A stretch of 32,000 bases of DNA from Candidatus Omnitrophota bacterium (GTDB lineage Bacteria > Omnitrophota > Gorgyraeia > Zapsychrales > JANLHA01): positions 3,210,001-3,242,000 of the forward strand of contig OY759724.1 in assembly GCA_963662715.1 (NCBI GenBank), given 5' to 3'. The stretch's first letter is position 1. Each line of letters begins with the position of its first letter. The notes under the pieces were generated by a model that was not told the DNA's origin, did no database searches, and saw only the letters and a list, made by a program, of their open reading frames with translations. A program made the translations under genes and the position numbers. Positions 8,510-32,000 of this stretch are shown one piece after another.

Positions 8510-8516
8510 TTCTCTT

Positions 8517-16310: not shown

Positions 16311-17354
16311 CTAAATACTATGAATAGCCGTGGAAATCAATTTAGACAGGTGCTCCAGATTGCCGACGTTAGCGGAAATTTTTCCGCCGGCTTTTTCGGT
16401 GTGCAAGTTCAGCACACCGAAAACCCTGTTCTGCGCAGACAAAGGAACGATCATGGACTGCTTAATCGAAGATCTTTTCAACAAATGGCTAATACGGCTG
16501 TCTCCCTCCCGCCCGGAAATGACAAAGGAGGTGTTTTCCTGCGCCGCTATGCCTGCTATCCCCTGCCCAACCTTAACACGCGCACTCTGAGCAATCTCTT
16601 CCGGCATTCCCCGAGAAACCTTAACAGCCAACTCCCCCGTCCGCTCGTCCAGCAACATGATCGAACCGTTTTCTGCCTGCGTCAAATTCAACGCCACATC
16701 CAGTATGGTGATAAGCAACTCGTCAAGATGGATTGTCGCGTAAAGGTCTTTTGCCGTCTCGGCAATTTCCCTGGAGAACATTTCCTTATTATATCTTTTC
16801 TTGTGCAAACGCTTCATTTCCAAATTCAAGTCAACGATATCCTTCACGACTTTTGCCAAAAGGTCCAGGATGGCTTTCATAGACACGAAAGAAACGACCC
16901 TGATCTCAAGAATCCTGTCGATCAAATCCTCAAATTCCACATGCAGTCGGCTTGCCATATTTTCATAATCTTCATTATCCCATCTCTTGTTAAGTATGAC
17001 AGGGCCCACGATGAGGTAAGCGATCGTCTTGTCGATATCAGCCTTAACGGGGATGGCAAAAACATGAAAATCAAAAGGATCCTTAGCCTCCAGATACGGT
17101 CCATGCTGGATAAAATCCTCCATCATATTATATTCCTGCCCGGTAAAATCAAAATTAAACGACCCCGTCAGGAATTCCACCCCATAGCCCCGGTTCAGGC
17201 TATCCCTGTACGGAGGGACCAGCATTTTACCGGCATGATCCACAACAAAGATATTAATCCTCAGGACGTCAATAAATCTGCGGAGGAAATCCGCCCACTT
17301 ATTTTTAATGATCAAGCGATCTTGGAGATGAGACAGATACTCTTTGTTCTTCAT
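16311..17354 (-). CDS. PocR-like sensory domain + GAF domain protein (no output domain)
   Basis: 347 aa. The N-terminal half resembles PocR (FVVDHAGKMLVPP...FHVFAIPVKADIDKTIAYLIVGPVIL). The C-terminal half is a GAF domain (LDVALNLTQAENGSIMLLDERTGELAV...GQGIAGIAAQ). The start lies 14 nt after the response-regulator stop. Confidence 0.8.
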   Translation of the reverse strand: MKNKEYLSHLQDRLIIKNKWADFLRRFIDVLRINIFVVDHAGKMLVPPYRDSLNRGYGVEFLTGSFNFDFTGQEYNMMEDFIQHGPYLEAKDPFDFHVFAIPVKADIDKTIAYLIVGPVILNKRWDNEDYENMASRLHVEFEDLIDRILEIRVVSFVSMKAILDLLAKVVKDIVDLNLEMKRLHKKRYNKEMFSREIAETAKDLYATIHLDELLITILDVALNLTQAENGSIMLLDERTGELAVKVSRGMPEEIAQSARVKVGQGIAGIAAQENTSFVISGREGDSRISHLLKRSSIKQSMIVPLSAQNRVFGVLNLHTEKAGGKISANVGNLEHLSKLISTAIHSI

Positions 17355-17368: not shown

Positions 17369-18766
17369 TTAAATCTTATTAAATGAAATATTATATTTTT
17401 TCATCTTATTATACAAAGTCGTACGATTAATCCCCAGCACAGCTGCCGCCCGGTTACGATTCCAGCTGCATTCCTCCAGCACGGAAAGAATCATGTCCCG
17501 CTCCGGCTGTTCCAAAACTTTTTTCAAAGACTGGCCATCCACAGGTTTTGTGGCAGCGACAGAAAACTTTTCGGAATTGGGGATATCCCATTTATTAATC
17601 ACATCTGTGCGGCACATGACAACCGCCCCTTCAATCGCGTTCTCCAGCTCACGGATATTTCCGGGCCAATTATACAAAAGGAACATTTTACGGACTTCGT
17701 CCGAAACACTCCTCACGTTCTTATTGTTATTTTTATTATACCGGGCGATAAAGTGCTCTACGATCAATTCTATATCATCCTTGCGCTCCCTTAACGGCGG
17801 CATAGAAATATTGATAACATTAATGCGATAGAACAAATCCTCCCGGAAATCCCCCTGCGACACGAGGTCAACTAAGTTCCGATTTGTGGCGACGATGATT
17901 CGGGCGTCTGTCTTCCTGGTAATGTTATCACCGACACGCTCAAAAACACCGTCCTGCAAAACCCGGAGGAGCTTAACCTGCAAACTGGGGGAAAAAGCAT
18001 CTATTTCATCCAGAAAGACCGTCCCTCCCCTGGCATACTCGAACCGCCCCTCTTTATCCTTGATAGCCCCGGTGAACGCCCCTTTCATATGTCCAAAAAG
18101 CTCGCTTTCGAGCAAAGTCTCAGACAAAGCCCCGCAACTCACTTCGACAAAAGGCTTCTGGCTGCGATTTTGGTCGGTCTCATGGATAGCTCTGGCGACA
18201 AGCCCCTTCCCTGTCCCGCTCTCTCCGGTGACAAGAATCGTCGCGTTGGATGTGGCGACCGACTGAACAACATGATAAACTTTTTGCATTTTCTCACTGC
18301 CGCCGATCATGCTGCAGAAAGAAACCGGGTTGACTTCAGCAATGATCTCCCGCAAATCCCTGTTTTCCTGCAGGATTTCTTTTCGCTCAACAATCTTATT
18401 GATCATAAGTTTTATTTCATTATCATTGATAGGTTTTGTGACATAGTCATAAGCGCCTTTTTTCATGGCGTCAACCGCTGTTTCAATAGACCCGTAGCCG
18501 GTAATAAGAATCACTTCCGTATCCGGAGAAACTTCTTTGATCTTCTCAATCAGCTTCAAACCGCTCATCTCAGGCAGCTTCATATCCGTCAACACGATAT
18601 CAGGAGCATCTTTATTTAAAATTTCTTCATAGGCCTCCTCACCCGAGGCTGCCATACTTGCCCGGAAACCGTCAATCCGCAAAATCTCATAAAGAGATTC
18701 TCTGATAAGCGGCTCATCATCAACGACAAGGATGTTATATTTATTATTACGTTCTTTATTGTTCAT
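17369..18766 (-). CDS. Sigma-54-dependent response regulator (NtrC family bacterial enhancer-binding protein)
   Basis: 465 aa. REC domain (ILVVDDEP...VLTDMKLPEMSG). AAA+ domain with Walker A GESGTGKG and the sigma-54 contact motif GAFTGA. C-terminal Fis-type HTH (NRAAAVLGINRTTLYNKMKKY). Confidence 0.95.
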   Translation of the reverse strand: MNNKERNNKYNILVVDDEPLIRESLYEILRIDGFRASMAASGEEAYEEILNKDAPDIVLTDMKLPEMSGLKLIEKIKEVSPDTEVILITGYGSIETAVDAMKKGAYDYVTKPINDNEIKLMINKIVERKEILQENRDLREIIAEVNPVSFCSMIGGSEKMQKVYHVVQSVATSNATILVTGESGTGKGLVARAIHETDQNRSQKPFVEVSCGALSETLLESELFGHMKGAFTGAIKDKEGRFEYARGGTVFLDEIDAFSPSLQVKLLRVLQDGVFERVGDNITRKTDARIIVATNRNLVDLVSQGDFREDLFYRINVINISMPPLRERKDDIELIVEHFIARYNKNNNKNVRSVSDEVRKMFLLYNWPGNIRELENAIEGAVVMCRTDVINKWDIPNSEKFSVAATKPVDGQSLKKVLEQPERDMILSVLEECSWNRNRAAAVLGINRTTLYNKMKKYNISFNKI

Positions 18767-20099
18767 ATTTTGTCTTAACGGGTATAGAAATCGTAAAAGA
18801 TGTGCCTTTATTCAGGTCGCTTTCTACGTTGATCTGGCCATCATAACTTTTTATGATTTCCGTAACGATGGTCAAACCCAGTCCGCATCCTTTTTCAATA
18901 TCTTTGGTTGTAAAAAAAGGTTCAAAAATATCATCAATCTTATCCCCGGCAATACCACAGCCCGTGTCTGTCACAGAAAAGATAATGTGTCCGTCCATTT
19001 GGGTGGAACACACTTTTATTTCCCCTCCAGGCCCCGTAGCATCAATAGCATTCCGCAAAAGGTTGACCAACACCCGTTCCAGCCCCAGATCCGTAACTTC
19101 CTTGAGTTCGGGATCAAGCTCTTTAGAAACGATAATCCCTTTCTCCACAATATCCGTCTTCAGGCCTTGCAAGGCCTGTTCAACCGAAGAGTTCACGTTA
19201 ATCTTGTGCAGCGAGGGGCCGGACGTACGGGAACAAGCCAAAAGACTTTTTACAATATTGGCCATTCGGTTCAACCCGTTCTTTATTTCCAGAAGGTACC
19301 CGCGAACGACCTCATCGTCCTTTACGTGCTCCAGGCAAAGATTGGTATAACGCATAACCCCGTCCAAAGGGTTATTGAATTCATGAGCGATCCCGCCCGT
19401 TAATTTTCCGATGGTTGCCAGTTTTTCATGCAAAACGATCTGTTTTTTAAGATGACTGGCCTCTTCACTGCTCTTGCCGAGCTTATGTTTTAAATTCTGG
19501 GACTCTTCCTCTACGGATTTAAATTTTTGATAAAGCTGAATACGCCTATAATTCAAAGCGATCTGGCTTGAGAGAAAGTCCAATAGCTGCAATTCGTTGG
19601 AGTTGAAGTGACTGCCGCACTCTTTGTCAGAGAGACTTATAACACCAATAAGTTTATCTTTTATTAATAAGGGGGCACATATAAAAGAAGGTGTTTTATA
19701 ACTCGACCTTGCCTTATAATTCTTAAAACGGTTATCCTGGGCAATGTCTGTAACAAAGATAGGCTTTTTACTGGCGGCGACTCTCCCCACCACCCCTTCA
19801 CCGAGTTTTTTAACCAGGCGCTCCTGCTCCGTCAATTCCATGCCCTGAGCTATCTTAAGGATCAGATCCTTTTCATTGTCATCAAGGATATAAATTGACC
19901 CCCGGTTAGCATCAAACAACTCCATGGTCTTTTTCAGGGAAGTCTCCAAGAGCTCACGCGCGCTTGACACGGCATTCACGGCAGCGCAGATGTCCCCGAT
20001 CTTTTGGAACAGCTCCGATTCTGTAAACTGCTCAAATATATGTGCCTGACTTTTATTGTACATTTGGCTTCTTTTTAACAACAGGCTGCAAACGGACAT
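18756..20099 (-). CDS. Cytoplasmic GAF-domain sensor histidine kinase
   Basis: 447 aa with no obvious TM segment. Contains a GAF domain, an H-box (GGIAHEFNNPLDG), an N-box (LLRNAIDA) and G-boxes (DTGCGI, GCGLGL). The start may instead be Met 20063. Overlaps the response-regulator gene by 11 nt. Confidence 0.92.
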   Translation of the reverse strand: MSVCSLLLKRSQMYNKSQAHIFEQFTESELFQKIGDICAAVNAVSSARELLETSLKKTMELFDANRGSIYILDDNEKDLILKIAQGMELTEQERLVKKLGEGVVGRVAASKKPIFVTDIAQDNRFKNYKARSSYKTPSFICAPLLIKDKLIGVISLSDKECGSHFNSNELQLLDFLSSQIALNYRRIQLYQKFKSVEEESQNLKHKLGKSSEEASHLKKQIVLHEKLATIGKLTGGIAHEFNNPLDGVMRYTNLCLEHVKDDEVVRGYLLEIKNGLNRMANIVKSLLACSRTSGPSLHKINVNSSVEQALQGLKTDIVEKGIIVSKELDPELKEVTDLGLERVLVNLLRNAIDATGPGGEIKVCSTQMDGHIIFSVTDTGCGIAGDKIDDIFEPFFTTKDIEKGCGLGLTIVTEIIKSYDGQINVESDLNKGTSFTISIPVKTKYEQ

Positions 20100-20976
20100 C
20101 GACCCCCTTGTCTTTTAGAGCCCTTAATCCGTTGATTGTCTGCTGCAGATAACCATTATATTTATGAGTCGGATGCTGATTCAAAAAATCCTGATAAATC
20201 GCAATAGGAGTATCAAAGTCTTTTAGATTTGCGACAGACATCGTATTGATCGTTTTAACAGTCAACACCATTTGCTGTGATGTCAAATACTCACTATCGG
20301 CGTACTCTGTCAGCAGTCCCCCGAGCGTCGCTATGCCATTTTTAACGTCACGTTTTGCAAAATACGAAGCCGCAAGCAGCCTCTTGGATTTAAAAGCGAT
20401 CTCTGTTCCGGGATTAGCTTGCACCTTATTGCTGTAAAATGTCAACGCATCCTGCAACGCTCTCTTAGCGTCCTCCTGTTTATTGAGCTTCACGTACAGA
20501 TGCATAATATACAAGGGGATATTAACACCGAGATCCGTTGTCCCGTAGTCGTTCATCAGCCTCCGATAAGCCTGGACGGCTTCGTCATACTTCTTTTCCA
20601 TTTCAAAGCTTTGCCCGATAAGAATCAAGGATTTGGCGTGCGATTCATAATCATCCGGATATTGCGAGATCGTTTCCTGAAAACTCGATCGTGCCTTCAC
20701 GTAATCTTTCTTTAATATATAAATCTTCCCGATCTTGTTATGAATCTTTCGCGATAACACTGCCTCAGGGTGTTGTTTAAGAATTTTCCGGTATTGCGCG
20801 ATCAAATCTTCATAGTTTTGATCAGGAACAGCTTTGGGATCCTGCTCAATTTCTTTGAATTGTTTTTGGGCCTGCCAGAGCTTCTTTTCCAGCTTGTAAT
20901 CACTGGTATCCACCAGGGAAAGCCCCACGAATAAAACTCCGAGGATCACAACAAATAAAATGATTGTCTTTTTCAT
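20053..20976 (-). CDS. TPR-repeat protein with N-terminal membrane anchor or signal
   Basis: 307 aa. N-terminal hydrophobic segment (IILFVVILGVLFVGLSL) followed by repeated TPR-like helical pairs. The start overlaps the upstream gene's stop (ATGA). Confidence 0.75.
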   Translation of the reverse strand: MKKTIILFVVILGVLFVGLSLVDTSDYKLEKKLWQAQKQFKEIEQDPKAVPDQNYEDLIAQYRKILKQHPEAVLSRKIHNKIGKIYILKKDYVKARSSFQETISQYPDDYESHAKSLILIGQSFEMEKKYDEAVQAYRRLMNDYGTTDLGVNIPLYIMHLYVKLNKQEDAKRALQDALTFYSNKVQANPGTEIAFKSKRLLAASYFAKRDVKNGIATLGGLLTEYADSEYLTSQQMVLTVKTINTMSVANLKDFDTPIAIYQDFLNQHPTHKYNGYLQQTINGLRALKDKGVDVRLQPVVKKKPNVQ

Positions 20977-21851
20977 TGCTCTTCTTTCTTTAATAAATAA
21001 TAGGTTGTCATTGTCGTATAATGTATGGCATCAATAAAAACAGAAAGCAGGACAGCGATGACAGCGAGAGCACCAAACAATTCCGGATAGACATTTTCTT
21101 TAAAGAGATTGGAGGCAGATTGCAACACAATCATCGGTAAATACAGTAAAGCCGGCAGCAAAAGCATAAAAAATGTGAACCAAAATGACTTCCATAATGT
21201 TTTAAAATTCGCGGCAAGCGCCGGGAAAAATTTCTTTTTATCAACAATAATCGCCGGAAAAACATAAATAAAGAGTGTTGCTGAAAAAACAGCAAGCAAC
21301 AGGTTCATGTACGGAGCGCTGATCAAGACAGATTGCTTGATAATAAAATACATACCTGTCGTTGAGCGGATAATCAGCGCCCGGGCAATCACAAGCTGAT
21401 GAAGATAAGAAAGGCCCAGCATCGTGGCCACCGGCAAAGAAGCCCCTAAAAACAAGTGGACATAAAAGGAAGCCGCTCGCTTGAAAGCAGCCTTAAAAAT
21501 AGCGGGTTGATTACCGTTAATCGCATTAATGATCGCGATAGAGGTCCCGATAAAGACACTGTTAAATATCATAAAGAGAAAACTTTGCAAAACATTATTC
21601 TGGAACCATTTAGCTAAAATGTAATACGAAAAAGGGTAGTGCAGGAATACAGCTCCCTCTAAACGGCTGATAATCGGGCCGAAAAATTTAACAAGCGGAT
21701 ATCGAGGAGCGAAAAGGAGAATTTCAAAAATCAGCAATTCCACAAACATAATAATAATATAGGGAAAAAGAATCGCCGAATGAGAGAATAAAGTGTTAAC
21801 TGAAGTTTTTAGAAGAGCGAAAGGCTGCCTGGTTTTCTTTGTTGAGGACAT
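20973..21851 (-). CDS. Polytopic integral membrane protein of unknown function
   Basis: 292 aa with about 6-7 hydrophobic helices and no cysteine residues. SD-like GGGGGGAGA upstream of the ATG. First gene of the operon. Confidence 0.65.
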   Translation of the reverse strand: MSSTKKTRQPFALLKTSVNTLFSHSAILFPYIIIMFVELLIFEILLFAPRYPLVKFFGPIISRLEGAVFLHYPFSYYILAKWFQNNVLQSFLFMIFNSVFIGTSIAIINAINGNQPAIFKAAFKRAASFYVHLFLGASLPVATMLGLSYLHQLVIARALIIRSTTGMYFIIKQSVLISAPYMNLLLAVFSATLFIYVFPAIIVDKKKFFPALAANFKTLWKSFWFTFFMLLLPALLYLPMIVLQSASNLFKENVYPELFGALAVIAVLLSVFIDAIHYTTMTTYYLLKKEEQ

Positions 21852-22077: not shown

Positions 22078-22386
22078 TTATATCTTTGTTTTCTTTTTTA
22101 AGGTCTTCATGTAACTCATCGCCACAATACCACTTCCTAAAAGCAACATTGTCGCCGGCTCAGGATTATGAAGCTGCGTGATAATTTCATCCCCTCCTCC
22201 TGACGGTAAAGGATTCGTGCCAGTAGTGACAGAAGACGGGTCAGTTTCAAAAAGGCCACCCACAGACGGCTCACTGCCACCTCCGCCACTATTACACCCA
22301 TAGACAAATGGGAGCAACACGCTAAAAAGAAACAAATTATGCAAGCGAGCAATTAACGTTTTCATAAATTTACATTCTCCCTTCAT
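22078..22386 (-). CDS. Small PEP-CTERM sorting-domain protein with lipoprotein-like signal peptide
   Basis: The C-terminus NPEPATMLLLGSGIVAMSYMKTLKKKTKI has PEP, then a TM helix, then a basic tail. The N-terminal signal ends in FVYGC followed by a Gly/Ser-rich region. The true start may be ATG 22365 (MKTLIARL...), preceded by AAGGGAG. Confidence 0.85.
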   Translation of the reverse strand: MKGECKFMKTLIARLHNLFLFSVLLPFVYGCNSGGGGSEPSVGGLFETDPSSVTTGTNPLPSGGGDEIITQLHNPEPATMLLLGSGIVAMSYMKTLKKKTKI

Positions 22387-22424: not shown

Positions 22425-22439
22425 GCAATTAATGTGCCA
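22425..22439 (-). promoter_or_regulatory. Sigma-54 (RpoN) -24/-12 promoter
   Basis: Minus strand reads TGGCACATTAATTGC(T), an exact match to TGGCAC-N5-TTGCW. It sits about 40-60 nt upstream of the two possible PEP-CTERM start codons. Confidence 0.8.
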
Positions 22440-22570: not shown

Positions 22571-25282
22571 TCATTTTTTTATACATTGTTGTTTTATAGC
22601 CCCCACCACATCCCGCAAACCGGCAGCGACACCGTCATACTCATTCCCCTCCCCCGAAATATCAGAAATCAAGGCATCAACAGTTTTCGGTGCTCCGATG
22701 AAAACCTTAACCGGGGCAGGTCTGGGGAAGCGGCGGGTTCTCGGCCATGCCTTATGAGAACCTTCAATGAAGACCGGGACGACAGGGACGGCGAGCTCTT
22801 TCAACAAGATTCCAACGCCTCTTTTGAATTGATTCATTTCTCCGTCAATGGATCTTTGACCTTCCGGGAAATAACACACGATCTTCCCCTGCCGGAGGAC
22901 AAAGGAGCATGCCCGCAGAGCTTCAATAAGGTTATGACTGATTTCCAGGGGAATCAGTCTGGCGATTTTAATAAAAGGCCTGAAATAAAACCGCTCAAAA
23001 AATTTGCTGTATCCGACAAAATATGTCTGCAAGGCTATTTTGTAAGGCAAAGAACACACAACAAACAAGCCGTCCAGATAACTGGCATGGTTTGGGCAAA
23101 TGAGATACGGCCCTTTCTCGGGAAGATTGTGCCCCCCTTCCGTTTTCAAAAAAAAGAATATCTTGAAGACCAGCTTACAAAGCGAGATAACAATAATATT
23201 AAAAATCAGGGCCAGAGGTCCGAAAAACAGCTTAATTCTGTTAATTGTGTTTTCCTGAGGACTTTCGAGCAGAATTTCTTCCCATCGGACGCTCTTGTCT
23301 TCTTTGAAGGATTGCTCGCCATCAGGAACAACGGTCTTAAGATGGTTCATGAGCTCCCGAATCGTGTTACACATAAAAAATTTCATGGACTGCTCGTCAT
23401 CGAGCTCTAGGTTCAACTGCTCCTGGATATTTAACAAAAGCTCAATTCTGCCCAAAGAATCCAGCCCCAAATCCAGCTCCAAATGGTCTTCTTCTCTGAC
23501 ATCTCTCTGTAAGGTTTCCCGGACAAACAACAAGGCGGACTGTGTCATGCTTTGAAAAGGGGCATCTCCCCCCCCACGGTCTCCCGGAGGATTATCCTGG
23601 CGCCCCGAGGTCTTTTGCCGGGAATAGAGGGGCTCCAGCTCATATCTTTTAATCTTGCCCAGACGGGTCCTGGGCAAAGGGGTCTGGGATATGGAAAATC
23701 CCTGTATCCGTTTGTAGGTCGGGAGCCTGACTGAAACATTGTCTATCTCCCACTTGATTTTCTCCCGGATATTTGAAACCTGCTGCAGACGGAAATACTC
23801 CTCATCAATGACGATTACAGCAACCAGTCGTTCACTCCCCGGGAAAAAAGCGCCTTCCTTGGAAACGAGCACGGCGAGCTCTTTAATAAAAGGAATCTGC
23901 TGGTACTCCCTTTCCACTTCTTCAGGATAAATATTCTTCCCGCTGCCGAGGACAATAAGCTCTTTCTTCCGTCCGGCAATAAACAGATAACCTTCCTCAT
24001 CCAGGCACCCCAGATCGCCGCTGAAGAACCACCCGTCCTTAAAGACCTCTTTTGTCTGCTCTTCTGCCTGATAATAACCTTTCATGACATTCGGGCCTTG
24101 AATAAGGATCTCCCCTACGCCGGCTTCATCGGGATCAAGAATCCTGACATCACATCCCGGCAAAGGCTTGCCCACCGACCCGACTTTAATGCCTTCCACA
24201 GGAGTAAAAGAAACAACGGGAGAGGTCTCGGTTAAGCCATATCCTTCCAGAATAGAGAAACCCCAGGACAAAAAAGAACGCGCGACTTGAGGATCCAATT
24301 TCGCCCCCCCGGAAACCAGGTGTCTCACCTGACCGCCGAAGGCCTGATGCACCCGGCCGAATAAATATTTATTAAAATTTCGCCCTGAGACACACCCCAT
24401 GGCCTGAAAAACAGGCGCCAGAAAGGAGAGGATAAAACGGGTAAAAAAAGGCAGCGAAGCGATCCGCTGCTTAATTGATCTTTCCAGGAGAAAAAAGACC
24501 TGAGGAACCCCGACCAGGAGAGTTGTCCTGGTGGCCTGCATAGCCTTTGCCAGTTCCAATGAACCGATCCCCTCCGGATAAACAACCTGAGCTCCCTTCA
24601 GAAGCGGAATTAATAACGTGGTTGTAAAAGCATAGGCATGATGCAAAGGAAGAAACGACAGAAGAATATCCTGACTCTGGATAATATGATAGGATTCAAT
24701 GGCCTGGCAGTTCGACAGCAAATTATGATGCGTCAGCATAACAGCTTTCGGGAGATCTGTTGTCCCGGAAGTATAAAAAAGGACAGCCAGGTCTTCCCCA
24801 TCCTCCCCCCTGGCCTCATTTTCGGAAAAACGATCACAAGCCCCGCCGCCCTGCCTTAAATGATCCAAGAATGATTTAGAGTCAACGGCAAGTAATGGAA
24901 TTCCGGTGATCTGCTCTCCCCATTTTTGAAACATTTTCTGCGATAAAATCACCATTTTCGCCTGAGAATGACGAATAACATTCTCAATCTGTTCCCTGGA
25001 ATATTGAATATCCAGCGGGACAGCTACCGCGCGCGCATACATAACCGCAAAAAATGAGAGAGAAAAACCAGTCTGATTGTCCAGCAAAAGGATGACCCTG
25101 TCCCCGGGAGAAACGTTCTTTGCTTTAAGGTGTTCCCCCAGACGCACGACGTCATCCAGAAGGTCTCGATAAGGGATAGAGCTAACAGACTCTTTCCGAT
25201 AAGACACTAGAGCGGTTTTATCTGAGTGAATTTGGGCAGAGTGCCGGAAAGCTTTAAAGATTTGCTGTTCGACAGTTGACAT
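22571..25282 (-). CDS. Tri-domain fusion: AMP-forming fatty-acid adenylase/ligase + acyl carrier domain + PlsC-type (LPLAT) acyltransferase
   Basis: 903 aa. Adenylation motifs YTSGTTDLPKAV, GYGLTET, GDLG...GRKKELIVLGSGKNIYPEEVE and LGKIKR. Carrier domain with LGLDSLGRIELL (phosphopantetheine Ser). A hydrophobic segment follows. Then acyltransferase motifs NHASYLD (HX4D), FPEGQRS and VPVVPVFIEGS. Confidence 0.92.
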   Translation of the reverse strand: MSTVEQQIFKAFRHSAQIHSDKTALVSYRKESVSSIPYRDLLDDVVRLGEHLKAKNVSPGDRVILLLDNQTGFSLSFFAVMYARAVAVPLDIQYSREQIENVIRHSQAKMVILSQKMFQKWGEQITGIPLLAVDSKSFLDHLRQGGGACDRFSENEARGEDGEDLAVLFYTSGTTDLPKAVMLTHHNLLSNCQAIESYHIIQSQDILLSFLPLHHAYAFTTTLLIPLLKGAQVVYPEGIGSLELAKAMQATRTTLLVGVPQVFFLLERSIKQRIASLPFFTRFILSFLAPVFQAMGCVSGRNFNKYLFGRVHQAFGGQVRHLVSGGAKLDPQVARSFLSWGFSILEGYGLTETSPVVSFTPVEGIKVGSVGKPLPGCDVRILDPDEAGVGEILIQGPNVMKGYYQAEEQTKEVFKDGWFFSGDLGCLDEEGYLFIAGRKKELIVLGSGKNIYPEEVEREYQQIPFIKELAVLVSKEGAFFPGSERLVAVIVIDEEYFRLQQVSNIREKIKWEIDNVSVRLPTYKRIQGFSISQTPLPRTRLGKIKRYELEPLYSRQKTSGRQDNPPGDRGGGDAPFQSMTQSALLFVRETLQRDVREEDHLELDLGLDSLGRIELLLNIQEQLNLELDDEQSMKFFMCNTIRELMNHLKTVVPDGEQSFKEDKSVRWEEILLESPQENTINRIKLFFGPLALIFNIIVISLCKLVFKIFFFLKTEGGHNLPEKGPYLICPNHASYLDGLFVVCSLPYKIALQTYFVGYSKFFERFYFRPFIKIARLIPLEISHNLIEALRACSFVLRQGKIVCYFPEGQRSIDGEMNQFKRGVGILLKELAVPVVPVFIEGSHKAWPRTRRFPRPAPVKVFIGAPKTVDALISDISGEGNEYDGVAAGLRDVVGAIKQQCIKK

Positions 25283-25293: not shown

Positions 25294-25998
25294 TTATTCT
25301 TTGGTCAAAGTTCCTTGATCAAGGTTTTCAATAAAGTACTCAAAAAACTTTGGAAATTTCCTCCGGACTTCCTGTTCCATCACAGGGAGCTTCCCGAGAT
25401 AAGGCTTAACAGGCCCGTAGACATCGACTTCTTCTCCGATGCAGTCAAATCTGAATCCATGAATCCGCAAGAGAAGCCATAAGCTTTTTTCCATTAACGC
25501 GTACCAATACGTAATGCCACGGCGCTTACTCTCATGATACAATTCCCGGTAGAGTCCAAAAGCCATGGGCTTGGCACGTCGGAGAAAATCATTTTGGGCC
25601 CCGTTAACTTTTTTATCGTCCACTTGCGGTTCATAGTACATTCCGTCATCGCGCCGACGCCGCAGTTGTTTGCTGATGACAAGCCGGGATATCTCGGCAT
25701 ACCCCATTTCCGGCAGAGGATCCGGTTTTATTGTGATATCCGGGCAATGCCTCTCAATAGGCAAATTCAACTCCCCCGGGACGATCATGCGCATAGTCCC
25801 GACAACATGCCCCGCATCGTTCAGAGCTGCAAAATGAACAGACTGGGCATCATATTCATCCTTTTCCAGGCACTGGGGATAATTTTCTTCTTTAATAAAA
25901 CCGCATTCCCGGCAATAGACCTGAAAACGCAACTTATAAACTTCCTGCATTAACTCATGCTCGTCGATATCAACTCTCTTAAATGTGAATTTTTCCAT
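25294..25998 (-). CDS. N-acyl amino acid synthase-like GNAT (LuxI/FeeM fold; PEP-CTERM/exosortase system-associated acyltransferase type), paralog 1
   Basis: 234 aa. LRFQVYCRECGFIKEENYP..LEKDEYDAQSVHFAALNDAGHVVGTMRMI ... AEISRLVISKQ ... ITYWYALME matches this family as I recall it. The stop lies 11 nt before the tri-domain gene's start. Confidence 0.8.
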   Translation of the reverse strand: MEKFTFKRVDIDEHELMQEVYKLRFQVYCRECGFIKEENYPQCLEKDEYDAQSVHFAALNDAGHVVGTMRMIVPGELNLPIERHCPDITIKPDPLPEMGYAEISRLVISKQLRRRRDDGMYYEPQVDDKKVNGAQNDFLRRAKPMAFGLYRELYHESKRRGITYWYALMEKSLWLLLRIHGFRFDCIGEEVDVYGPVKPYLGKLPVMEQEVRRKFPKFFEYFIENLDQGTLTKE

Positions 25999-26134: not shown

Positions 26135-26839
26135 TTAATTAGCCCTCTGAAAGACAGGAACAAAATGGGATTCCAAAATAGGGCAATTATGTTGAAAAAT
26201 AAAATTCTGGATGGACCGCTCAATATCGGAAATTGAGACAACATAAGGGAAAACAGGGCCGAAATAGCTCACCTCCGGCCCGATGCAGGTGAACTTAAAG
26301 CCGTATTTGGCAAAAAGCACGTACAATTTCCTTTCCATCAAGGCATACCAATGGGTAATATCCAAACGCTTGCTTTCCGCAAACACGCTGCTACAAAGCC
26401 CTATAGTGATACACTTAGCAATACACCGGGACAGCGCATCAGAATACTTTGAGGGACAGTTCTTACTGTCCTCACACAAGCGCAGAAAATCCTTTTTCTT
26501 ACGGAACTTCTCGCTGACAATCAAACGCGAAATCTCGGCAAACCGCAGCTGGGGACATATCTTTCTGGGATTGAGGAACAGAGAACTCTTCTGTTCCAAA
26601 GGCAGCGGATGTCTGCCGGGCAGAATCAGGCGGATAGCCCCTACAACGTCTCCTTCACTATCAATCGCCGCAAAATGCTGGGCTTGCGAGTCATATTTAT
26701 CATGCTCTAAGCCGTCCGGGTAATCATCTGAATCAATATATCGGCATTCCTCTACATAGACATCATAACGCAAACGGAAAATCTGCTCCATCAGGTGAGG
26801 CTCATCAGAATATACTTTTTTGTATATCAACTCTTTCAT
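26135..26839 (-). CDS. N-acyl amino acid synthase-like GNAT (PEP-CTERM/exosortase system-associated acyltransferase type), paralog 2
   Basis: 234 aa, the same length as paralog 1 and by eye roughly one third to 40% identical. Shared blocks include LRYDVYVEEC, YP.GLEHDKYDSQAQHFAA, VVGAIRLILPG, FAEISRL, ITHWYALME and GFKFTCIGPEV. Confidence 0.8.
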   Translation of the reverse strand: MKELIYKKVYSDEPHLMEQIFRLRYDVYVEECRYIDSDDYPDGLEHDKYDSQAQHFAAIDSEGDVVGAIRLILPGRHPLPLEQKSSLFLNPRKICPQLRFAEISRLIVSEKFRKKKDFLRLCEDSKNCPSKYSDALSRCIAKCITIGLCSSVFAESKRLDITHWYALMERKLYVLFAKYGFKFTCIGPEVSYFGPVFPYVVSISDIERSIQNFIFQHNCPILESHFVPVFQRAN

Positions 26840-26959: not shown

Positions 26960-26984
26960 TGACCTGCCCCCATTAGTTGTGCCA
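26960..26984. repeat. IS terminal inverted repeat (orfB-proximal end)
   Basis: TGACCTGCCCCCATTAGTTGTGCCA pairs with the reverse complement of 28166-28191. Confidence 0.8.
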
Positions 26985-27824
26985 AAAGTTGTGAGAGTTT
27001 AACGGAGATGGCTGAAGCCATCTTGGTTGAATAGCTTCCGGTGCCGGAGGCTTATAACCCAATGATCCATGCGGACGGATCGTATTATATTCCCACCGCC
27101 AGCGTTCCACCAACACCTGAGCTTCATACAATGTATCAAAAATTTCCAGATTTAACAACTCATCCCGTAGTCGCCCGTTAAAGGATTCAATATATCCATT
27201 TTCCCAAGGGCTTCCCGGTTCAATATACAACGTTTCCACTCCGATCCTTCTCAACCACCAACGGACGCGTTCAGCGATAAATTCCGGCCCATTATCCGAA
27301 CGAATATATAACGGCACTCCTTTTTCAATAAACAATCGAGATAAAACATCAATCACATTCCTGGAATTGAGTTTGCGCCCAACTTCTATGGCCAGGCATT
27401 CCCGGCTATACTCATCAATGATCGTTAACATCTTTATTGGTCGGCCATTTGATGTCCGGTCATGAACAAAATCATAACTCCAGACGTGGTTGTGATGTTC
27501 TGGCCGTAATCGGATGCAGGAACCGTCATTCAGCCATAACCTCCTTCGTTTAGGTTGTTTCATCGGAACTTTAAGACCTTCCCGTCTCCATAAACGTTCG
27601 ACTCGTTTATCATTTAATGGCATCCAGCCCGATTCGCGTAACAATTCAGCAACTTTTCGGTATCCATACCGTCCATATTGCTTGACCATATTGATCATAG
27701 CCTCAACTAATGCTCCTTCATCATATCGGCCTGAACATCTATATTGCTGTGTTGATCTTGCTTGGCTAAGAATTTTACACAACCGCCTTTCTGATACTTT
27801 GGGGAATTTCTCCTTCGCCCACAT
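26973..27824 (-). CDS. IS3-family transposase OrfB (DDE/rve integrase domain)
   Basis: 283 aa from the first Met. The frame is open upstream to nt 27863. DDE-region motifs [15 protein letters not shown] and [10 protein letters not shown], plus [15 protein letters not shown]. Probably expressed as an OrfAB fusion. Confidence 0.93.
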
Positions 27825-27850
27825 AATCGCCCGGCGTTTCTTGGCCGGGC

Positions 27851-28126
27851 TTAGAAGTTTCCCTCATTGACTTCCTTCAAAATAGCGTTATCTAATGATA
27901 AGTCAGCCACCAGTTTCTTTAATCGGGTATTCTCCCGTTCTAGCTCTTTATACTTCTTGGCTTGATCTATTTTCATCCCGCCGTATGCCTTGCGCCAACG
28001 GTAATAGGTCTGTTCCGATATGCCCGCTTGTCGGCAGGCATCTCCGGTGTCCAGCCCTTTACCAAGGTGTATTTCAACTTCTCGTAATTTCGTAATTATT
28101 TCTTCTGATTTGAATCTTTTACCCAT
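27851..28126 (-). CDS. IS3-family transposase OrfA (HTH, leucine-zipper-like tail)
   Basis: 91 aa. ...[21 protein letters not shown]...[25 protein letters not shown] is typical of IS3/IS911-type OrfA. Confidence 0.92.
27857..27863 (-). other. Programmed -1 ribosomal frameshift heptamer G_GGA_AAC
   Basis: The minus strand reads GAG GGA AAC TTC TAA in the orfA frame. Slipping to GGG AAA C enters the orfB frame, which is open from this exact point. The site fits the X_XXY_YYZ pattern and lies 2 codons before the orfA stop. Confidence 0.7.
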
Positions 28127-28165
28127 TTTTGCCCCTTTCTGTTATCATTATTCTATCACAAAAAG

Positions 28166-28191
28166 TGGCTCAACTTTTGGGGGGTGGGTCA
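28166..28191. repeat. IS terminal inverted repeat (orfA-proximal end)
   Basis: The reverse complement is TGACCCACCCCCCAAAAGTTGAGCCA. Confidence 0.8.
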
Positions 28192-28371
28192 AAGGTACGA
28201 TAAAATTCATCAAGGATAATCTATTGAATACGAATCCTTCCGGTGGATTTTCGTTATACGTATACTGCAGCTCAGGGGAAAGAAAAGGCGAAGCGCACAT
28301 TAATAAGAATAATTTTTCTCTTTCCACCGCTCCCTCAAATAAAAGTAAGCAGCGAATATTTCTATTTGCAT

Positions 28372-28400
28372 TTGCATCTTAAAGTACCATATGCTAGCAT
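28372..28400 (+). promoter_or_regulatory. Candidate sigma-70 promoter (extended -10) for the LolA-like/ABC operon
   Basis: TTGCAT (28372-28377), a 17-nt spacer ending in TGC, then TAGCAT (28395-28400). The -10 is embedded in the same ATGCTAGCAT palindrome seen at 26852-26861. It lies about 40 nt upstream of ATG 28441. Confidence 0.45.
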
Positions 28401-28440: not shown

Positions 28441-29220
28441 ATGAAAATAAATCAGAAAATACGCAGTCATTTGTTGGGAGCAATCCTCTTTTCCCTTCTT
28501 TGCCCTTTAACAGTTGCCGGCGCACAGGAGGAAATTTCGGCCAAGGAATTTATTAAACGCTCCGATGACCTTATGCGGGGAGAAACGAATCAAGGCATCT
28601 ATTCCATGCGCATCAAGACTCCCAACTGGGAACGCACGCTGTCCCTGCAGGTTTACAATTCCGGGCGCAATAAGACGTTTATCCGCATCCTCTCTCCGGC
28701 CAAGGAAGCAGGTATCGGCACGTTACGGATCGATAATGAGATGTGGAATTACCTTCCCAATATAGAAAAAACGATTAAAATCCCCCCTTCCATGATGCTT
28801 CAGCCCTGGATGGGAAGTGATTTTGCCAATGATGATCTGGTCAAAGAAAGCAGCATTGTGGAAGATTACACGCATAGAATCGTAAGTCAACGCTCCTTCA
28901 AGGATAAAACCATTCTGAAAATTCAACTCACCCCTAAACCCGGAGCCCCTGTGATCTGGGGAAAAATATATCGCTGGATCCGGCAAGAAGATTATCTGCC
29001 TTTGAAAGAAGCCTATTATGACGAAAAAGGCAAACTGATTAAGACCCTTTATTATCTTAATGAAGGTCCGGTTTCTGACCGTGTCATTCCCAGGACCTGG
29101 ACCATGAAGTCAGAAGTCAAAGAAGGACACATGACCACGATAAAATTGCAGGATGTTGAGTATAATAAACCCATACCCGATGATATCTACACTCTCATAC
29201 ATCTTAAAAAAATCCAGTAA
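28441..29220 (+). CDS. LolA-like outer membrane lipoprotein-sorting protein family (periplasmic carrier fold)
   Basis: 259 aa with a signal peptide (…LTVAGAQE). The blocks FIRILSPAKEAGIGTLRIDNEMWNYLPNIEKTIKIPPSMMLQPWMGSDFANDDL are characteristic of the LolA_like family usually found beside FtsX-type ABC permeases. Confidence 0.82.
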   Translation: MKINQKIRSHLLGAILFSLLCPLTVAGAQEEISAKEFIKRSDDLMRGETNQGIYSMRIKTPNWERTLSLQVYNSGRNKTFIRILSPAKEAGIGTLRIDNEMWNYLPNIEKTIKIPPSMMLQPWMGSDFANDDLVKESSIVEDYTHRIVSQRSFKDKTILKIQLTPKPGAPVIWGKIYRWIRQEDYLPLKEAYYDEKGKLIKTLYYLNEGPVSDRVIPRTWTMKSEVKEGHMTTIKLQDVEYNKPIPDDIYTLIHLKKIQ

Positions 29221-29279: not shown

Positions 29280-30506
29280 ATGTTTACATTTATAAAAATT
29301 GCCATTCGGAACATCATTCGCAATAAAAAAAGATCACTGATCACGATCTCGGCTGTCGGTTTCGGATTAGGGGCCCTGATCTTCATCTGGGCTTTTGTCG
29401 AAGGCGCCCACAAACAAATGATCGAAAACTACACGTCGTATTTAACGAGCCATATTCTTATTCACCGAAAGGGTTATCAGCAAAAGAACAATCTGGAGAC
29501 CTATATTGAAATCCCCAGGAACATCCTCTCTTTTCTGCAACAAAGACCGGAAATTGCCGCGTTTGCCCCCCGGGTCAAAGCAGAGGGGTTATTAAGCTCT
29601 GCCGAATCTTCTTCCGGTGTTTTAATTTTTGGGATCGACCCTCTGCAGGAGACAAAAGTCAGCACATTAAGCAAACGCATCAAACAGGGCCGTTTTCTGA
29701 CCCCGGACAGTCATGACAATATCATTATCGGAGAAGCCCTGGCAAAAAACCTGAATGTCGGGCTGGGAGACAAGGTCGTGATCATGTCGCAGGCCCTGGA
29801 TGGCAGTATCGCCGCCGGAGCCTTCCGTATCCAGGGTTTGCTGGACACGGGGGTGGAAGAAATTGACAAAGGGGTCGTGCTGCTTCTGCTGCCGGACTCC
29901 CAAGAGCTTTTCGTTATGAACGATAAAATCTCGGAGATTGCCATTCGGCTCAAGTCTGTTGAGAAGGCAAAATCCGTCGCCAAAAAACTCAGCAGGGCCC
30001 TCCCTGCCTCTGAACTGGAAATACTGCCCTGGCAAACCATATCTCCCATGATGCAGCAATGGATAGAATTTGACAACGCTTTTATTTGGATCATCGTCAT
30101 CGTCGTCATGATTGTTGTCGCCATCGGCATCCTCAACACCGTTCTCATGGGCGTCTTGGAACGAACCAGGGAGTTTGGCATCCTGCTGGCCTTAGGAACT
30201 CATCACAAGCAAATCGTGGCGATGGTGGCCTGGGAATCCGTCTTCCTGGGGATTATCGGCAGCCTTTGGGGCCTGGCCTTAGGAGTATCATTAAGCAGTT
30301 ATTTCGGGAAAGTCGGTATAGATTTATCCTTATTCACCAGCGCCCTCAACTCATTTTATATGGACGCTTTTATTTATCCGGTCATTCATATGGGTTATAT
30401 ATCGGTATCTGTGGCCCTGGTTTTGTTTACAAGTATCCTCGTGTCAATCTATCCGGCCTGGCATGCGGCCCATTTAAAACCCGTTGATGCTATACGGACT
30501 ATTTAG
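29280..30506 (+). CDS. ABC transporter permease, FtsX/MacB/LolCE type
   Basis: 408 aa. N-terminal AIRNIIRNKKRSLITISAVGFGLGAL, a large periplasmic loop after TM1, and a C-terminal three-TM FtsX domain ending in SIYPAWHAAHLKPVDAIR. Confidence 0.9.
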   Translation: MFTFIKIAIRNIIRNKKRSLITISAVGFGLGALIFIWAFVEGAHKQMIENYTSYLTSHILIHRKGYQQKNNLETYIEIPRNILSFLQQRPEIAAFAPRVKAEGLLSSAESSSGVLIFGIDPLQETKVSTLSKRIKQGRFLTPDSHDNIIIGEALAKNLNVGLGDKVVIMSQALDGSIAAGAFRIQGLLDTGVEEIDKGVVLLLLPDSQELFVMNDKISEIAIRLKSVEKAKSVAKKLSRALPASELEILPWQTISPMMQQWIEFDNAFIWIIVIVVMIVVAIGILNTVLMGVLERTREFGILLALGTHHKQIVAMVAWESVFLGIIGSLWGLALGVSLSSYFGKVGIDLSLFTSALNSFYMDAFIYPVIHMGYISVSVALVLFTSILVSIYPAWHAAHLKPVDAIRTI

Positions 30507-30515: not shown

Positions 30516-31190
30516 ATGGCTCTTATAGAAACAAAAAATCTCAAAAAAGTCTACACGATAGGAAAAAACATCAGAGCCGAAGCTCTGCGCGGCATCAACC
30601 TGCAGATTACGGAAGGGGAATTCACGGCCATTGCCGGCCCTTCCGGTTCGGGGAAATCTTCCCTGTTAAATATCATCGGGGCTTTAGACACCCCCACAGA
30701 AGGCCTTATCCTTCATGACGGGCAGGATGTCAGCCAGAAAACCCCGAAGCAACTAGCCTCCTTCAGATTACGGCATATCGGATTTGTCTTCCAGGCCTAT
30801 AATCTTATCAACACATTGACCGCTCTTGAGAATGTTGAATACATTATGCTGCTGCAGGGCGTCAGCTGGCATACCCGCCAGAAACGCTCGAAAGAAATAC
30901 TAAAACGCGTCGGGCTGAACGACTACATCCACCGGTTCCCTAATGAGATGAGCGGGGGACAGCAACAGCGGGTTGCGGTGGCCAGGGCCATGGCCGCTGA
31001 ACCGCGCATAATCTTGGCTGATGAACCCACGGCCAATTTAGATTCAAAAACAGCACAGGAATTGCTGAATCTTATGCTAGAATTAAACGATGAAAAAAAG
31101 ATCACCTTTGTTTTTTCAACTCACGACAGCCTAATCATGGAACGGGCCAAACGTCTCGTAATCTTAAAAGATGGAGTCATTGTCTCATGA
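30516..31190 (+). CDS. ABC transporter ATP-binding protein (MacB/LolD-like)
   Basis: 224 aa. Walker A GPSGSGKSS, signature MSGGQQQRVAVARA, and Walker B ILADEPT. Confidence 0.95.
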   Translation: MALIETKNLKKVYTIGKNIRAEALRGINLQITEGEFTAIAGPSGSGKSSLLNIIGALDTPTEGLILHDGQDVSQKTPKQLASFRLRHIGFVFQAYNLINTLTALENVEYIMLLQGVSWHTRQKRSKEILKRVGLNDYIHRFPNEMSGGQQQRVAVARAMAAEPRIILADEPTANLDSKTAQELLNLMLELNDEKKITFVFSTHDSLIMERAKRLVILKDGVIVS

Positions 31191-32000
31191 AAAACTTTCT
31201 TTTGCTGGTATCCGTATTAATATTAGCCGTGACAACGGATGTTTTTGCCGAGGACTCAACGGACACTTTCAGTCTGAGCGGTTATTATAAAGCGCTCGTC
31301 GTCGGGAGCAAATCCCTGGCGACCAAGGAAAACATTTTTGCGGCGACCAACCGGCTCAGGCTGGAACTTAAAGCGCAAAAAGACCCTTGGCAGTTTTATT
31401 TGACCATTGACAACGAAGCTATTATCAATGACTTCGCCAATACGGCAGATTTCGCCTTTATCCGCTCACGCACCCAGGACAAAGTCGCGGCTATCGACGC
31501 AGACGTTGTTTCGGTCGACAACGACCATTTATACCTGAAACATTCCATCTACCGGGCTTTTATCAAATATTACACGCCGGAATTTCAGGCGGTGATCGGG
31601 AAACAACTCATCGATTGGGGACGTTTGAGGTTCTATTCTCCGGTCGACATCTTCAATTCCGTAGGTCCCGTCAATCTGGAACAAGACGAACGGATCGGGG
31701 TCGATGCCATCAACCTCAATTATTCCCCGGAGGCCTTCGTAGGCATCAATCTTGTCGCCGCTCCTGACAGCAAGGATGAAAATGCCAGCGGAGGGCTCAA
31801 GATTTATAAAACAATCTCGACATATGACCTGGCCTTGCTGGCGGCCTCTGTCCGTAAAGATCAGATATACGGGTTCTCCTTTGACGGCTACATTAAAGAT
31901 GCGGGATTCCGGGGAGAATTCACCTATACGGTTCAAGATGACAAACGGGAATTCCCCCGGGCAGCCCTGGGGATCGATTACCGATTCAATCCAAAATGGT
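31187..32000 (+). CDS. Exported protein, putative outer-membrane beta-barrel, 3'-truncated by the window edge
   Basis: Absent from the ORF track because it has no stop in the window. The ATG overlaps the ATPase stop (ATGA). Signal peptide MKNFLLLVSVLILAVTTDVFA/ED. The frame stays open for about 271 codons to the window end, with alternating hydrophobic/aromatic patterns (SLSGYYKALVV, RLRLELKA, FSFDGYIKDAGFRGEFTY). Confidence 0.7.
   Translation, partial: MKNFLLLVSVLILAVTTDVFAEDSTDTFSLSGYYKALVVGSKSLATKENIFAATNRLRLELKAQKDPWQFYLTIDNEAIINDFANTADFAFIRSRTQDKVAAIDADVVSVDNDHLYLKHSIYRAFIKYYTPEFQAVIGKQLIDWGRLRFYSPVDIFNSVGPVNLEQDERIGVDAINLNYSPEAFVGINLVAAPDSKDENASGGLKIYKTISTYDLALLAASVRKDQIYGFSFDGYIKDAGFRGEFTYTVQDDKREFPRAALGIDYRFNPKW

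Follow-up and report, generated by a model that had tools for sequence, protein, structure and literature searches.

We analysed a stretch of 32,000 nucleotides from a Candidatus Omnitrophota bacterium (contig OY759724.1, positions 3,210,001 to 3,242,000; hereafter the window, with coordinates counted from its first letter), which contains a single open reading frame (ORF) joining an adenylation domain, an acyl carrier protein (ACP) and a PlsC-type acyltransferase. This tri-domain ORF lies on the minus strand at 22571-25282 and encodes 903 aa from an ATG start in one continuous frame. The adenylate-forming (ANL) domain comprises residues 1-560 (23603-25282), as delimited by Pfam, motif location and the AlphaFold model, and is followed by the acyl carrier domain (residues 575-651; 23330-23560, with the codon of Ser609 at 23456-23458). 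A single hydrophobic helix (residues 683-712; 23147-23236) forms the N-terminus of the acyltransferase part, and the LPLAT/PlsC acyltransferase domain itself spans residues 713-903 (22574-23146), with the HX4D motif at 23072-23089. All these features are on the minus strand, downstream of two genes for N-acyl amino acid synthase-like proteins.

The three domains score above their Pfam cut-offs: AMP-binding (PF00501) at residues 12-404 (E 1e-80, 271.9 bits versus a cut-off of 29.9), PP-binding (PF00550) at residues 588-648 (E 1.7e-7, 31.8 versus 20.8 bits) and Acyltransferase (PF01553) at residues 714-839 (E 1.8e-20, 73.5 versus 23 bits). All core motifs A3-A10 of the ANL superfamily are present. 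They were located by script as A3 YTSGTTDLPK (170-179), A5 GYGLTE (347-352), A6 GEILIQGPNVMKGYY (390-404), A7 SGDLG (421-425), A8 GRKKELI (437-443) and A10 PRTRLGKIKR (537-546). The same script found the carrier motif DSL at residues 608-610 and the acyltransferase motifs NHASYLD (731-737), FPEGQRS (805-811) and VPVVPV (832-837). In a family alignment of 42 homologues (38-61% identity), D608, S609 and L610 of the carrier are invariant, as are H732, D737, F805, P806, G808 and R810 of the acyltransferase and K543 (the A10 lysine), D423 and R438 of the adenylation domain. A preliminary description of this DNA, made from its letters, had listed intact adenylation motifs, a carrier with a DSL serine and an acyltransferase domain with NHASYLD and FPEGQRS, and each of these elements is recovered here. 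The carrier is truly fused and looks functional. No phosphopantetheinyl transferase gene was found within the window.

AlphaFold2 models built from the same 42-sequence alignment reached a mean pLDDT of 83.6 for the full-length protein and 86.9 for residues 560-903. Together with Pfam, they show the three folded domains and the membrane segment that had been anticipated. Both models contain a four-helix carrier (helices 575-591, 609-623, 629-636 and 641-651) in which Ser609 stands at the N-terminus of helix 2, as in an ACP; the carrier thus models as a four-helix ACP with a modifiable serine, as the preliminary description had supposed. By Foldseek, it resembles the ACPs of type II fatty acid synthase (FAS), with TM-scores of 0.75-0.81 and a root mean square deviation of 1.5-2.0 A. 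The only two very low-confidence segments of the AlphaFold2 model, residues 561-576 and 655-663, border the carrier and are, as modelled, its two flexible tethers.

The C-terminal domain has the PlsC of Thermotoga maritima (5KYM) as its top match, both in structure (Foldseek E 1e-8) and in sequence (phmmer E 2.5e-9); the next Foldseek matches are GPAT1, LpxM and PatA. The motifs HX4D, FPEGxR and VPxxPV, the PlsC fold and an N-terminal membrane-association helix together place it in the LPLAT/PlsC family. Residues 683-712 are the sole strongly hydrophobic stretch of the 903-aa protein (Kyte-Doolittle ~2.3 over 19 residues), modelled as a helix at 689-710 in a region that precedes the aligned catalytic core of 5KYM. 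The hydrophobic helix noted earlier as a linker is therefore real, but it is not a spacer; it is the N-terminal membrane-association helix of the PlsC domain. We infer that this predicted helix anchors the protein monotopically and does not cross the membrane, because the ACP must reach both the cytoplasmic adenylation domain and the HX4D site.

Whether the adenylation domain is of the fatty acyl-AMP ligase (FAAL) or of the fatty acyl-CoA ligase (FACL) type bears on the product that it releases. FAALs reportedly carry a specific insertion of ~20 residues in the N-terminal domain, after A5. No such insertion lies between A5 and A6 in the tri-domain protein, where the spacing of 38 residues is the same as in the CoA ligase MatB, the region aligns to MatB without extra query residues and the AlphaFold model shows a short loop alone. 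The domain is best superposed by Foldseek on CoA ligases (feruloyl-CoA synthetase, MatB and FadD13, TM ~0.85), and the first FAAL structure, 7R7E, ranks 38th behind many CoA ligases. A FAAL identity was rejected on these grounds, and the domain comes out as FACL-like. The preliminary description had also held that acyl transfer proceeds without going through acyl-CoA; this was conjecture, and since the domain is without the FAAL insertion and has CoA ligases as its closest structures, it may well use CoA. In FAALs, a specific helix and bulky residues block the CoA pocket (PMC8460268). A different insertion, helical, rather hydrophobic and of ~45 residues (260-314), lies between A4 and A5; it is missing from MatB and common to proteins with the architecture of ElbD, an ether-lipid enzyme. 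The probable substrate is a fatty acid, judging from the A4 region (LPLHHAYAF) and from the top-matching models, which are those of long-chain fatty-acid ligases and of Aas.

The fusion is a widespread gene form. A word-indexed search found more than 120 clusters (at 90% identity) whose proteins, ~870-1000 aa long, carry these three Pfam domains as well; they are 39-61% identical to the query and cover 95-100% of it. They derive from NCBI, JGI, ENA and Logan assemblies, mostly from metagenome-assembled genomes (MAGs) of Candidatus Omnitrophota, and all are named in the databases merely as ‘AMP-binding protein’ or ‘long-chain acyl-CoA synthetase.’ Searched exhaustively with HMMER, the ACP-PlsC part found 377 representatives of 50%-identity clusters at E <= 1e-30; the majority are ~900 aa long and matched at ~570-900. 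Among the matches listed, full-length relatives at 26-43% identity occur on contigs labelled Planctomycetia, Nitrospirae, Spirochaetota, Acidobacteriota, Myxococcales, Melainabacteria and others. The family alignment, when run against genomes and metagenomes, gave, among the matches listed, mostly distant homologues (<= 43% identity) and one further close locus, L049. Since the same fusion occurs in more than 120 independent clusters from many assemblies, an assembly chimera, which had been raised as a possible objection, is excluded. More generally, the chance that an assembly or gene-calling artefact joined separate genes is next to nil, as no supporting evidence was found and as the frame is continuous and the fusion recurs in more than 120 clusters, with homologues of 870-930 aa at 61-39% identity, and in the 377 representatives at 50% identity. 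Proteins of 340-460 aa consisting of ACP-PlsC only were also numerous in the representative search, and some of them may be truncated gene calls. One relative, L151, encodes a separate 485-aa ACP-PlsC protein (6502-7959) without adenylation domain, two genes upstream of a full tri-domain gene and adjoining a GT4-hydrolase fusion and a GtrA-domain protein.

Directly upstream of the tri-domain gene lie NAS1 (25294-25998, minus strand), which ends 11 nt ahead of the tri-domain start codon, and its paralogue NAS2 (26135-26839, minus strand). Both encode N-acyl amino acid synthase-like proteins of the GNAT superfamily, each 234 aa long and 40% identical to each other. They score 185.4 (NAS1) and 163.8 bits (NAS2) against TIGR03694, the model of the PEP-CTERM/exosortase system-associated acyltransferase, above the cut-off of 111.95, and match the FeeM, Acetyltransf_5 and autoinducer-synthase (Autoind_synth) families of Pfam; NAS2 also has a weak OlsB match (E 0.001). 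A sequence search of the PDB with NAS1 gave marginal matches to GNATs and to acyl-homoserine lactone synthases (E 0.004-0.3) and did not recover FeeM. The donor of FeeM-type synthases is acyl-ACP, for which an ACP can be dedicated to them, as FeeL serves FeeM (PMC11631085; PMC4897644). The aminolipid pathways, which lead to ornithine, glycine and glutamine lipids, pair an N-acyltransferase of this superfamily with a PF01553 O-acyltransferase, often from adjacent genes (PMC11631085), and the window likewise has genes of the GNAT/FeeM/OlsB superfamily beside a PF01553 O-acyltransferase.

Downstream of the tri-domain gene, and also on the minus strand, a small ORF (22078-22386; 102 aa, likely start ATG at 22365) encodes a PEP-CTERM protein with a lipobox-like cysteine (VYGC) and a Gly/Ser-rich region. 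It scores 20.8 against PF07589 (cut-off 20.7) and 17.2 against TIGR02595 (cut-off 16). An exact sigma-54 -24/-12 element, TGGCACattaaTTGC, lies at 22425-22439 (minus strand), ~40-60 nt upstream of this gene, and is the sole exact TGGCAC-N5-TTGC match in the window. Since two matches are found with one mismatch allowed, no more than in shuffled sequence, the evidence for this promoter is not the count but the conserved position: the element recurs at the orthologous site, exact in L167 and with one mismatch in L175. Comparable ~100-aa proteins with a lipobox and a PEP-CTERM signal occur in three loci, the window (VYGC), L167 (11853-12185; VYGC; orthologue 65% identical) and L175 (9979-10302; LSGC), in every case flanked by the tri-domain gene and the gene of the ~290-aa membrane protein and preceded by a sigma-54 -24/-12 element; L001, L003, L005, L171 and L172 lack the gene. 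It is odd to find, beside a Lol-like exporter, a protein that is anchored or processed at its two ends.

This ~290-aa protein is encoded in the window at 20973-21851 (minus strand) as a conserved multi-pass membrane protein of 292 aa with no family match. It is followed on the same strand by a TPR protein (20053-20976) with a weak match to PrsT/YbgF/BamD-type models, a GAF-domain histidine kinase identified by domain scan (18756-20099) and a sigma-54-dependent response regulator (17369-18766) that matches TIGR02915, the PEP-CTERM-box regulator, over its full length. Against the Prs models, all three regulators score under the cut-off (419 versus 502.6 bits for TIGR02915, and 90.9 versus 300 and 27.6 versus 312 for the others). 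A PocR-GAF sensor protein (16311-17354, minus strand) occupies the same position in L003, L167, L168, L170, L172 and L175, and a DUF134 protein (15730-16200, minus strand) marks the cluster end, as also in L003 and L167. PEP-CTERM genes have been described as single genes behind sigma-54 promoters, run by a trio of TPR protein, kinase and sigma-54 regulator (Haft, PMC1569441), and the arrangement of PEP-CTERM gene, promoter and regulators in the window agrees with this description. A genetic link of N-acyl amino acid synthases to PEP-CTERM systems has been published as well (Craig, Cherry and Brady, 2011, as reported by citing papers). What ties the window to these systems is a pair of proteins above the TIGR03694 cut-off, together with the PEP-CTERM protein of the locus. 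The scanned ORFs of the window gave no match to an exosortase family; the relative L170 has EpsI nearby.

A divergent operon on the plus strand has the features of an export system. Its first gene encodes a LolA-like periplasmic protein (PF17131, E 2.5e-54; 28441-29220), followed by an FtsX/MacB-type (LolC/E-like) ABC permease (29280-30506) and a LolD/MacB-like ABC ATPase (30516-31190), both from domain scans. The 5' part of a gene for a secreted protein (31187-32000) then runs off the window; by eye, and unscored, it is close to a 379-aa protein of L001 with an N-terminal hydrophobic leader and a terminal Phe, and its relative in L005 has a weak match to an outer-membrane beta-barrel model. 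A Pfam search at E <= 5 with five proteins of the window, L001, L003 and L005, covering the ~290-aa membrane protein and two proteins of the export operon, gave nothing consistent; single homologues produced weak GPDPase_memb/Choline_transpo matches and one outer-membrane beta-barrel match. Between NAS2 and the LolA-like gene, in the divergent promoter region that measures ~100-370 bp in relatives, sits an IS3-family element (26973-28126, minus strand) composed of orfB (26973-27824, rve) and orfA (27851-28126, HTH_Tnp_1), which may disturb the expression of one or both operons. A 120-aa ORF (28020-28382) antisense over orfA is probably spurious.

To follow the cluster through the family, we sampled the gene context of 13 relatives. 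A neighbour-joining tree separates ten that form a clade with the window (L001, L003, L005, L049, L167, L168, L170, L171, L172 and L175) from a sister clade (L169, L173 and L174) in which the synthase is missing. One or two FeeM-like genes lie directly upstream of the tri-domain gene in all ten clade relatives, with gaps of ~3-55 nt. In nine of the ten, the tri-domain gene (or the small ORF) is directly followed by the ~290-aa membrane protein gene, and the TPR/GAF-kinase/sigma-54 regulator trio is likewise present in nine. A blind prediction of synthase linkage, made from the tree for P0049 and counted among the ten, came true. Among the distant tri-domain proteins examined (<= 39% identity), a synthase neighbour was never seen. 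The export genes, which most loci have, occur in two forms: a LolA-like/FtsX/ABC form in the window, L001, L005, L049, L167 and L171, and a form with MMPL, ThiF, a LolA-like protein and DUF1302 in L003 and L172, of which ThiF and DUF1302 are found in the shorter flank of L175. L168 and L170 also carry further PEP-CTERM genes, EpsI, a priming glycosyltransferase and rpoN.

Several other genes accompany the cluster or its relatives. A ThiF gene (E1-like adenylyltransferase) marks the edge of the export half in L003 (3457-4371), L167 (924-1745), L172 (1102-1980) and L175 (3159-4097); its position in the window would fall beyond base 32000. In the MMPL/DUF1302 variant, a gene with a PilZ domain, of the cyclic di-GMP receptor type, lies directly upstream of the synthase (L003 6677-7117, L172 4653-5099, L175 5574-6155), and PilZ genes are found a few kb off in L001 and L168. 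Two members of the sister clade have an alpha/beta-hydrolase gene (Hydrolase_4) that overlaps the tri-domain start codon (L173 5198-6004, L174 5237-6004); the Melainabacteria homologue L020 has a patatin phospholipase gene (8785-9876) directly upstream, and some distant tri-domain genes adjoin a patatin lipase or other lipid-related genes. The hydrolase and patatin neighbours suggest a deacylation-reacylation pairing for those family members. Just outside the cluster in the window lies a seemingly unrelated molybdenum hydroxylase set (7177-11860 and 14234-15034) with FAD, 2Fe-2S and Mo subunits (4-hydroxybenzoyl-CoA reductase/xanthine dehydrogenase-like), a MocA-like cytidylyltransferase and an XdhC maturation factor. 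A 611-aa protein (5312-7147, plus strand), for which NCBIfam gave no match, carries an Rce1-like CAAX protease domain (E 2.9e-11) at its C-terminus. Rfam gave nothing at the gathering threshold across the window.

Our preferred reading, on which we are evenly poised, is that the tri-domain protein is a membrane-associated, self-loading acyltransferase that would O-acylate the N-acyl amino acid made by the adjacent synthases, by analogy with OlsB/OlsA. The ANL domain would adenylate a free, probably long-chain, fatty acid, and the acyl group would pass to the phosphopantetheine on Ser609 of the protein's own FAS-like ACP, which swings on its two putative linkers. The PlsC domain, presumably anchored at the cytoplasmic face of the inner membrane by residues 683-712, would then esterify a lipid hydroxyl through H732 and D737. 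We have fair confidence in this mechanism at the level of the domains (adenylation, loading of the Ser609 phosphopantetheine and HX4D-dependent esterification), for which the adenylating and carrier steps of ElbD and the chemistry of Aas would be the precedents. In the clade of the window, the acceptor is most likely an N-acyl amino acid (a lyso-aminolipid) from the two FeeM-like synthases; the lyso-aminolipid suggested earlier as an acceptor thus gains strong support from context, with two FeeM-like genes upstream and this linkage kept in the ten clade relatives. Synthases and tri-domain enzyme would act like OlsB/OlsA or GlsB/GlsA, except that the O-acyltransferase supplies its own activation and carrier. 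The synthases may draw on this acyl-ACP too, because FeeM-type enzymes use acyl-ACP. The ~290-aa membrane protein would handle the product, the LolA-like/ABC/outer-membrane-protein (or MMPL) module would export it, and the cluster would be co-regulated with PEP-CTERM proteins by the TPR/GAF-kinase/sigma-54 regulator set. What the data show directly are the identities of the domains, their catalytic residues and folds, the size of the family and the linkage of the genes; substrate, acceptor, direction of transfer, export route and regulation are deduced from these.

Several points weigh against this reading. The characterised TIGR03694-type synthases reportedly give N-acyl aromatic amino acids from ordinary acyl-ACP, and these products would carry no 3-hydroxyl of the kind acylated by OlsA-type enzymes. 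The PlsC domain matched Aas-type and generic models of 1-acylglycerol-3-phosphate acyltransferase (AGPAT), with no aminolipid O-acyltransferase model among the matches, and the CoA-ligase-like adenylation domain, without the FAAL insertion, may yield acyl-CoA. The export and flippase roles are drawn from family names only, the ~290-aa protein being without a detectable family. For ElbD, acyltransferase activity was not detected in vitro (PMC9131029).

The tri-domain protein might instead serve a housekeeping role like that of Aas, re-esterifying lysophospholipids with free or recycled fatty acids via its fused ACP, with the synthases acting independently. Both halves align with E. coli Aas and find their top NCBIfam matches in Aas-type models, and the lipases beside sister-clade and distant members (L173, L174, L020) fit a deacylation-reacylation cycle of the wider family. 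For these hydrolase- and patatin-linked relatives, Aas-like re-acylation is plausible. It fits the window less well, and we consider it unlikely there: the partner in this clade is always a FeeM-like synthase (ten of ten), never a lysophospholipid transporter or lipase, NAS1 ends 11 nt away within a cluster that is regulated and linked to export, every Aas model score is far under its cut-off, and no LplT-like gene is present. An LplT-type pair was also considered at the distant homologue L088 and rejected, as its upstream gene, an MFS (major facilitator superfamily) member, is Atg22-like and has no similarity to E. coli LplT (E 0.59).

Another explanation takes the adenylation and carrier domains as a supply of dedicated ACP, loaded with a particular fatty acid, for the two synthases, in the manner of FeeL and FeeM; the PlsC domain would be a mere membrane tether or serve an unrelated acceptor, and the product would be a mono-acyl N-acyl amino acid. 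The use of acyl-ACP by FeeM-type synthases, to which an ACP can be dedicated, speaks for it (PMC11631085; PMC4897644), as does a weak match of the adenylation domain (161 bits) to TIGR03098, ‘acyl-CoA ligase, exosortase A system-associated’; since NCBIfam holds this stand-alone model, fatty-acid activation is a recurrent partner of PEP-CTERM systems. The PlsC residues H732, D737 and F805/P806/G808/R810 are, however, invariant in the 42 homologues, which would be unexpected for a degenerate tether and makes this explanation decidedly unlikely. Finally, an ether-lipid role like that of ElbD, in which the enzyme would open alkyl-ether lipid synthesis by acylating dihydroxyacetone phosphate (DHAP) or glycerol-3-phosphate, draws on collinearity, at 30% identity, with an ElbD-architecture protein of a Myxococcales MAG and on the existence of split elbD variants with a separate reductase gene (bioRxiv 10.64898/2026.06.23.733905). 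We hold it to be very improbable, as the tri-domain protein has no reductase (FAR/NAD_binding_4) domain, the scanned ORFs of the window gave no FAR, HAD or NAD-epimerase match, and the conserved partners are quite different.

There is also a wider and more speculative idea, which we rate as improbable. In it, the synthases and the tri-domain enzyme would make a (di)acylated amino-acid lipid as the lipid partner that the PEP-CTERM/exosortase system is missing. The Lol-like/MMPL machinery would carry this lipid to the outer membrane, where it would serve either as the nucleophile or anchor to which exosortase transfers cleaved PEP-CTERM proteins or as a dedicated surface lipid that these proteins require for display. 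In its anchor version, the lipid could be likened to lipid II for sortase or to the glycosylphosphatidylinositol anchor for its transamidase. The small lipobox-plus-PEP-CTERM protein and the ThiF gene could belong to the same process.

The A-ACP-PlsC architecture itself is already on record, and reductase-free members have been mentioned in the literature and never studied. The new element is the context: a conserved, undescribed cluster for making and exporting a predicted acylated amino-acid lipid, linked to PEP-CTERM. In the searchable literature, neither a fused A-ACP-PlsC gene nor the ~290-aa membrane protein nor a Lol-like/MMPL module is mentioned for TIGR03694 or PEP-CTERM systems. In the Omnitrophota, a large and almost uncultured group, the synthases are thus hard-wired to a putative activating, carrying and esterifying enzyme, a candidate trans-envelope export module and PEP-CTERM-type sigma-54 regulation. 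NAS1, NAS2, the tri-domain gene and the gene of the ~290-aa protein make up a compact, clonable set and thereby a route to the role of the synthases in PEP-CTERM systems. The tri-domain protein also represents a natural reductase-free ElbD core, in which the acyltransferase step, undemonstrated for ElbD, is open to assay with a plausible acceptor. If the product is only a biosurfactant-type N-acyl amino acid ester, the result amounts to no more than a helpful annotation of several hundred ‘AMP-binding protein’ entries.

The preliminary description had called the protein an inverted Aas with a fused carrier, a reading that holds in part. Both halves are indeed homologous to the catalytic domains of E. 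coli Aas in swapped order: BLASTP aligns residues 31-458 with Aas 225-631 (26% identity, E 9e-36) and residues 700-842 with Aas 8-140 (25% identity, E 6e-14). The predicted chemistry, from fatty acid through acyl-ACP to a lipid hydroxyl, is also the same. The carrier is fused here, whereas Aas uses free AcpP, and E. coli aas is paired with lplT, whereas the scanned ORFs of the window include no MFS gene in the cluster. The best NCBIfam match for each half is an Aas-type model far under its cut-off (165 bits versus 886 for NF005959; 296 versus 1221 and 232 versus 1349 for related models). With its order reversed, an ACP inserted and a score below the NF005959 cut-off, the protein stands outside the Aas family, and the wording that fits better is collinear with the ElbD core.

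The FAR-ACS-ACP-AGPAT fusion ElbD of Myxococcus xanthus, with a fatty-acyl reductase (FAR) and an acyl-CoA synthetase (ACS) among its domains, acts in ether-lipid/plasmalogen synthesis; its ACS and ACP activities were confirmed in vitro, and ElbD-like homologues in other phyla are said to ‘almost all lack a FAR1 domain’ (PMC9131029). In known variants, elbD is split, with the break falling between its reductase and adenylation domains (2026 preprint, bioRxiv 10.64898/2026.06.23.733905), and a 2021 survey mentions FAAL-like fusions to lysophospholipid acyltransferases in passing (PMC8460268). In our searches, three relatives from Phycisphaerae, Acidobacteriota and Myxococcales contigs are ~1430-1465 aa long, and Pfam finds FAR (NAD_binding_4/Sterile) ahead of AMP-binding/PP-binding/Acyltransferase in L018 (Myxococcales) and L016 (Acidobacteriota). 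Residues 570-1396 of the Myxococcales FAR-ACS-ACP-AT protein are collinear with residues 6-863 of the tri-domain protein (30% identity over 860 residues, E 3e-114). By sequence, the closest studied relative is thus the ACS-ACP-AGPAT portion of ElbD-type ether-lipid enzymes. Domain order and the helical insertion in the adenylation domain are common to both, but the tri-domain protein has no N-terminal FAR domain (families FAR/NAD_binding_4, HAD and NAD-epimerase gave no match in it or in the scanned ORFs of the window) and no elbB/C/E-type neighbours; its partners are N-acyl amino acid synthases, a Lol-like exporter and sigma-54 regulators.

The succession of an ANL domain and a carrier on a flexible linker recalls the adenylation-peptidyl carrier protein (A-PCP) didomain of McyG (PDB 4R0M; 695 aligned columns in Foldseek). 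Unlike in the A-PCP didomains of nonribosomal peptide and polyketide synthase loading modules, the carrier is similar to type II FAS ACPs and not to a PCP, and in contrast to A-PCP and FAAL-ACP loading systems, the FAAL insertion is absent and the downstream partner is a lipid acyltransferase instead of a condensation or ketosynthase domain. With the TIGR03694 systems, as far as these are described in papers citing Craig, Cherry and Brady (2011), the window shares a PEP-CTERM gene, a sigma-54 promoter and a trio that resembles PrsT/K/R but scores below the cut-offs of the Prs models. As in OlsB/OlsA and GlsB/GlsA, an N-acyltransferase gene adjoins the gene of a PF01553 O-acyltransferase; unlike in these pairs, the O-acyltransferase has its own adenylation and ACP domains, and the N-acyltransferases of the window belong to the PEP-CTERM-associated TIGR03694 family and not to OlsB. 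A more fitting description of the tri-domain protein is an ElbD-type core that lacks the reductase and has been recruited to a cluster of PEP-CTERM-associated N-acyl amino acid synthases.

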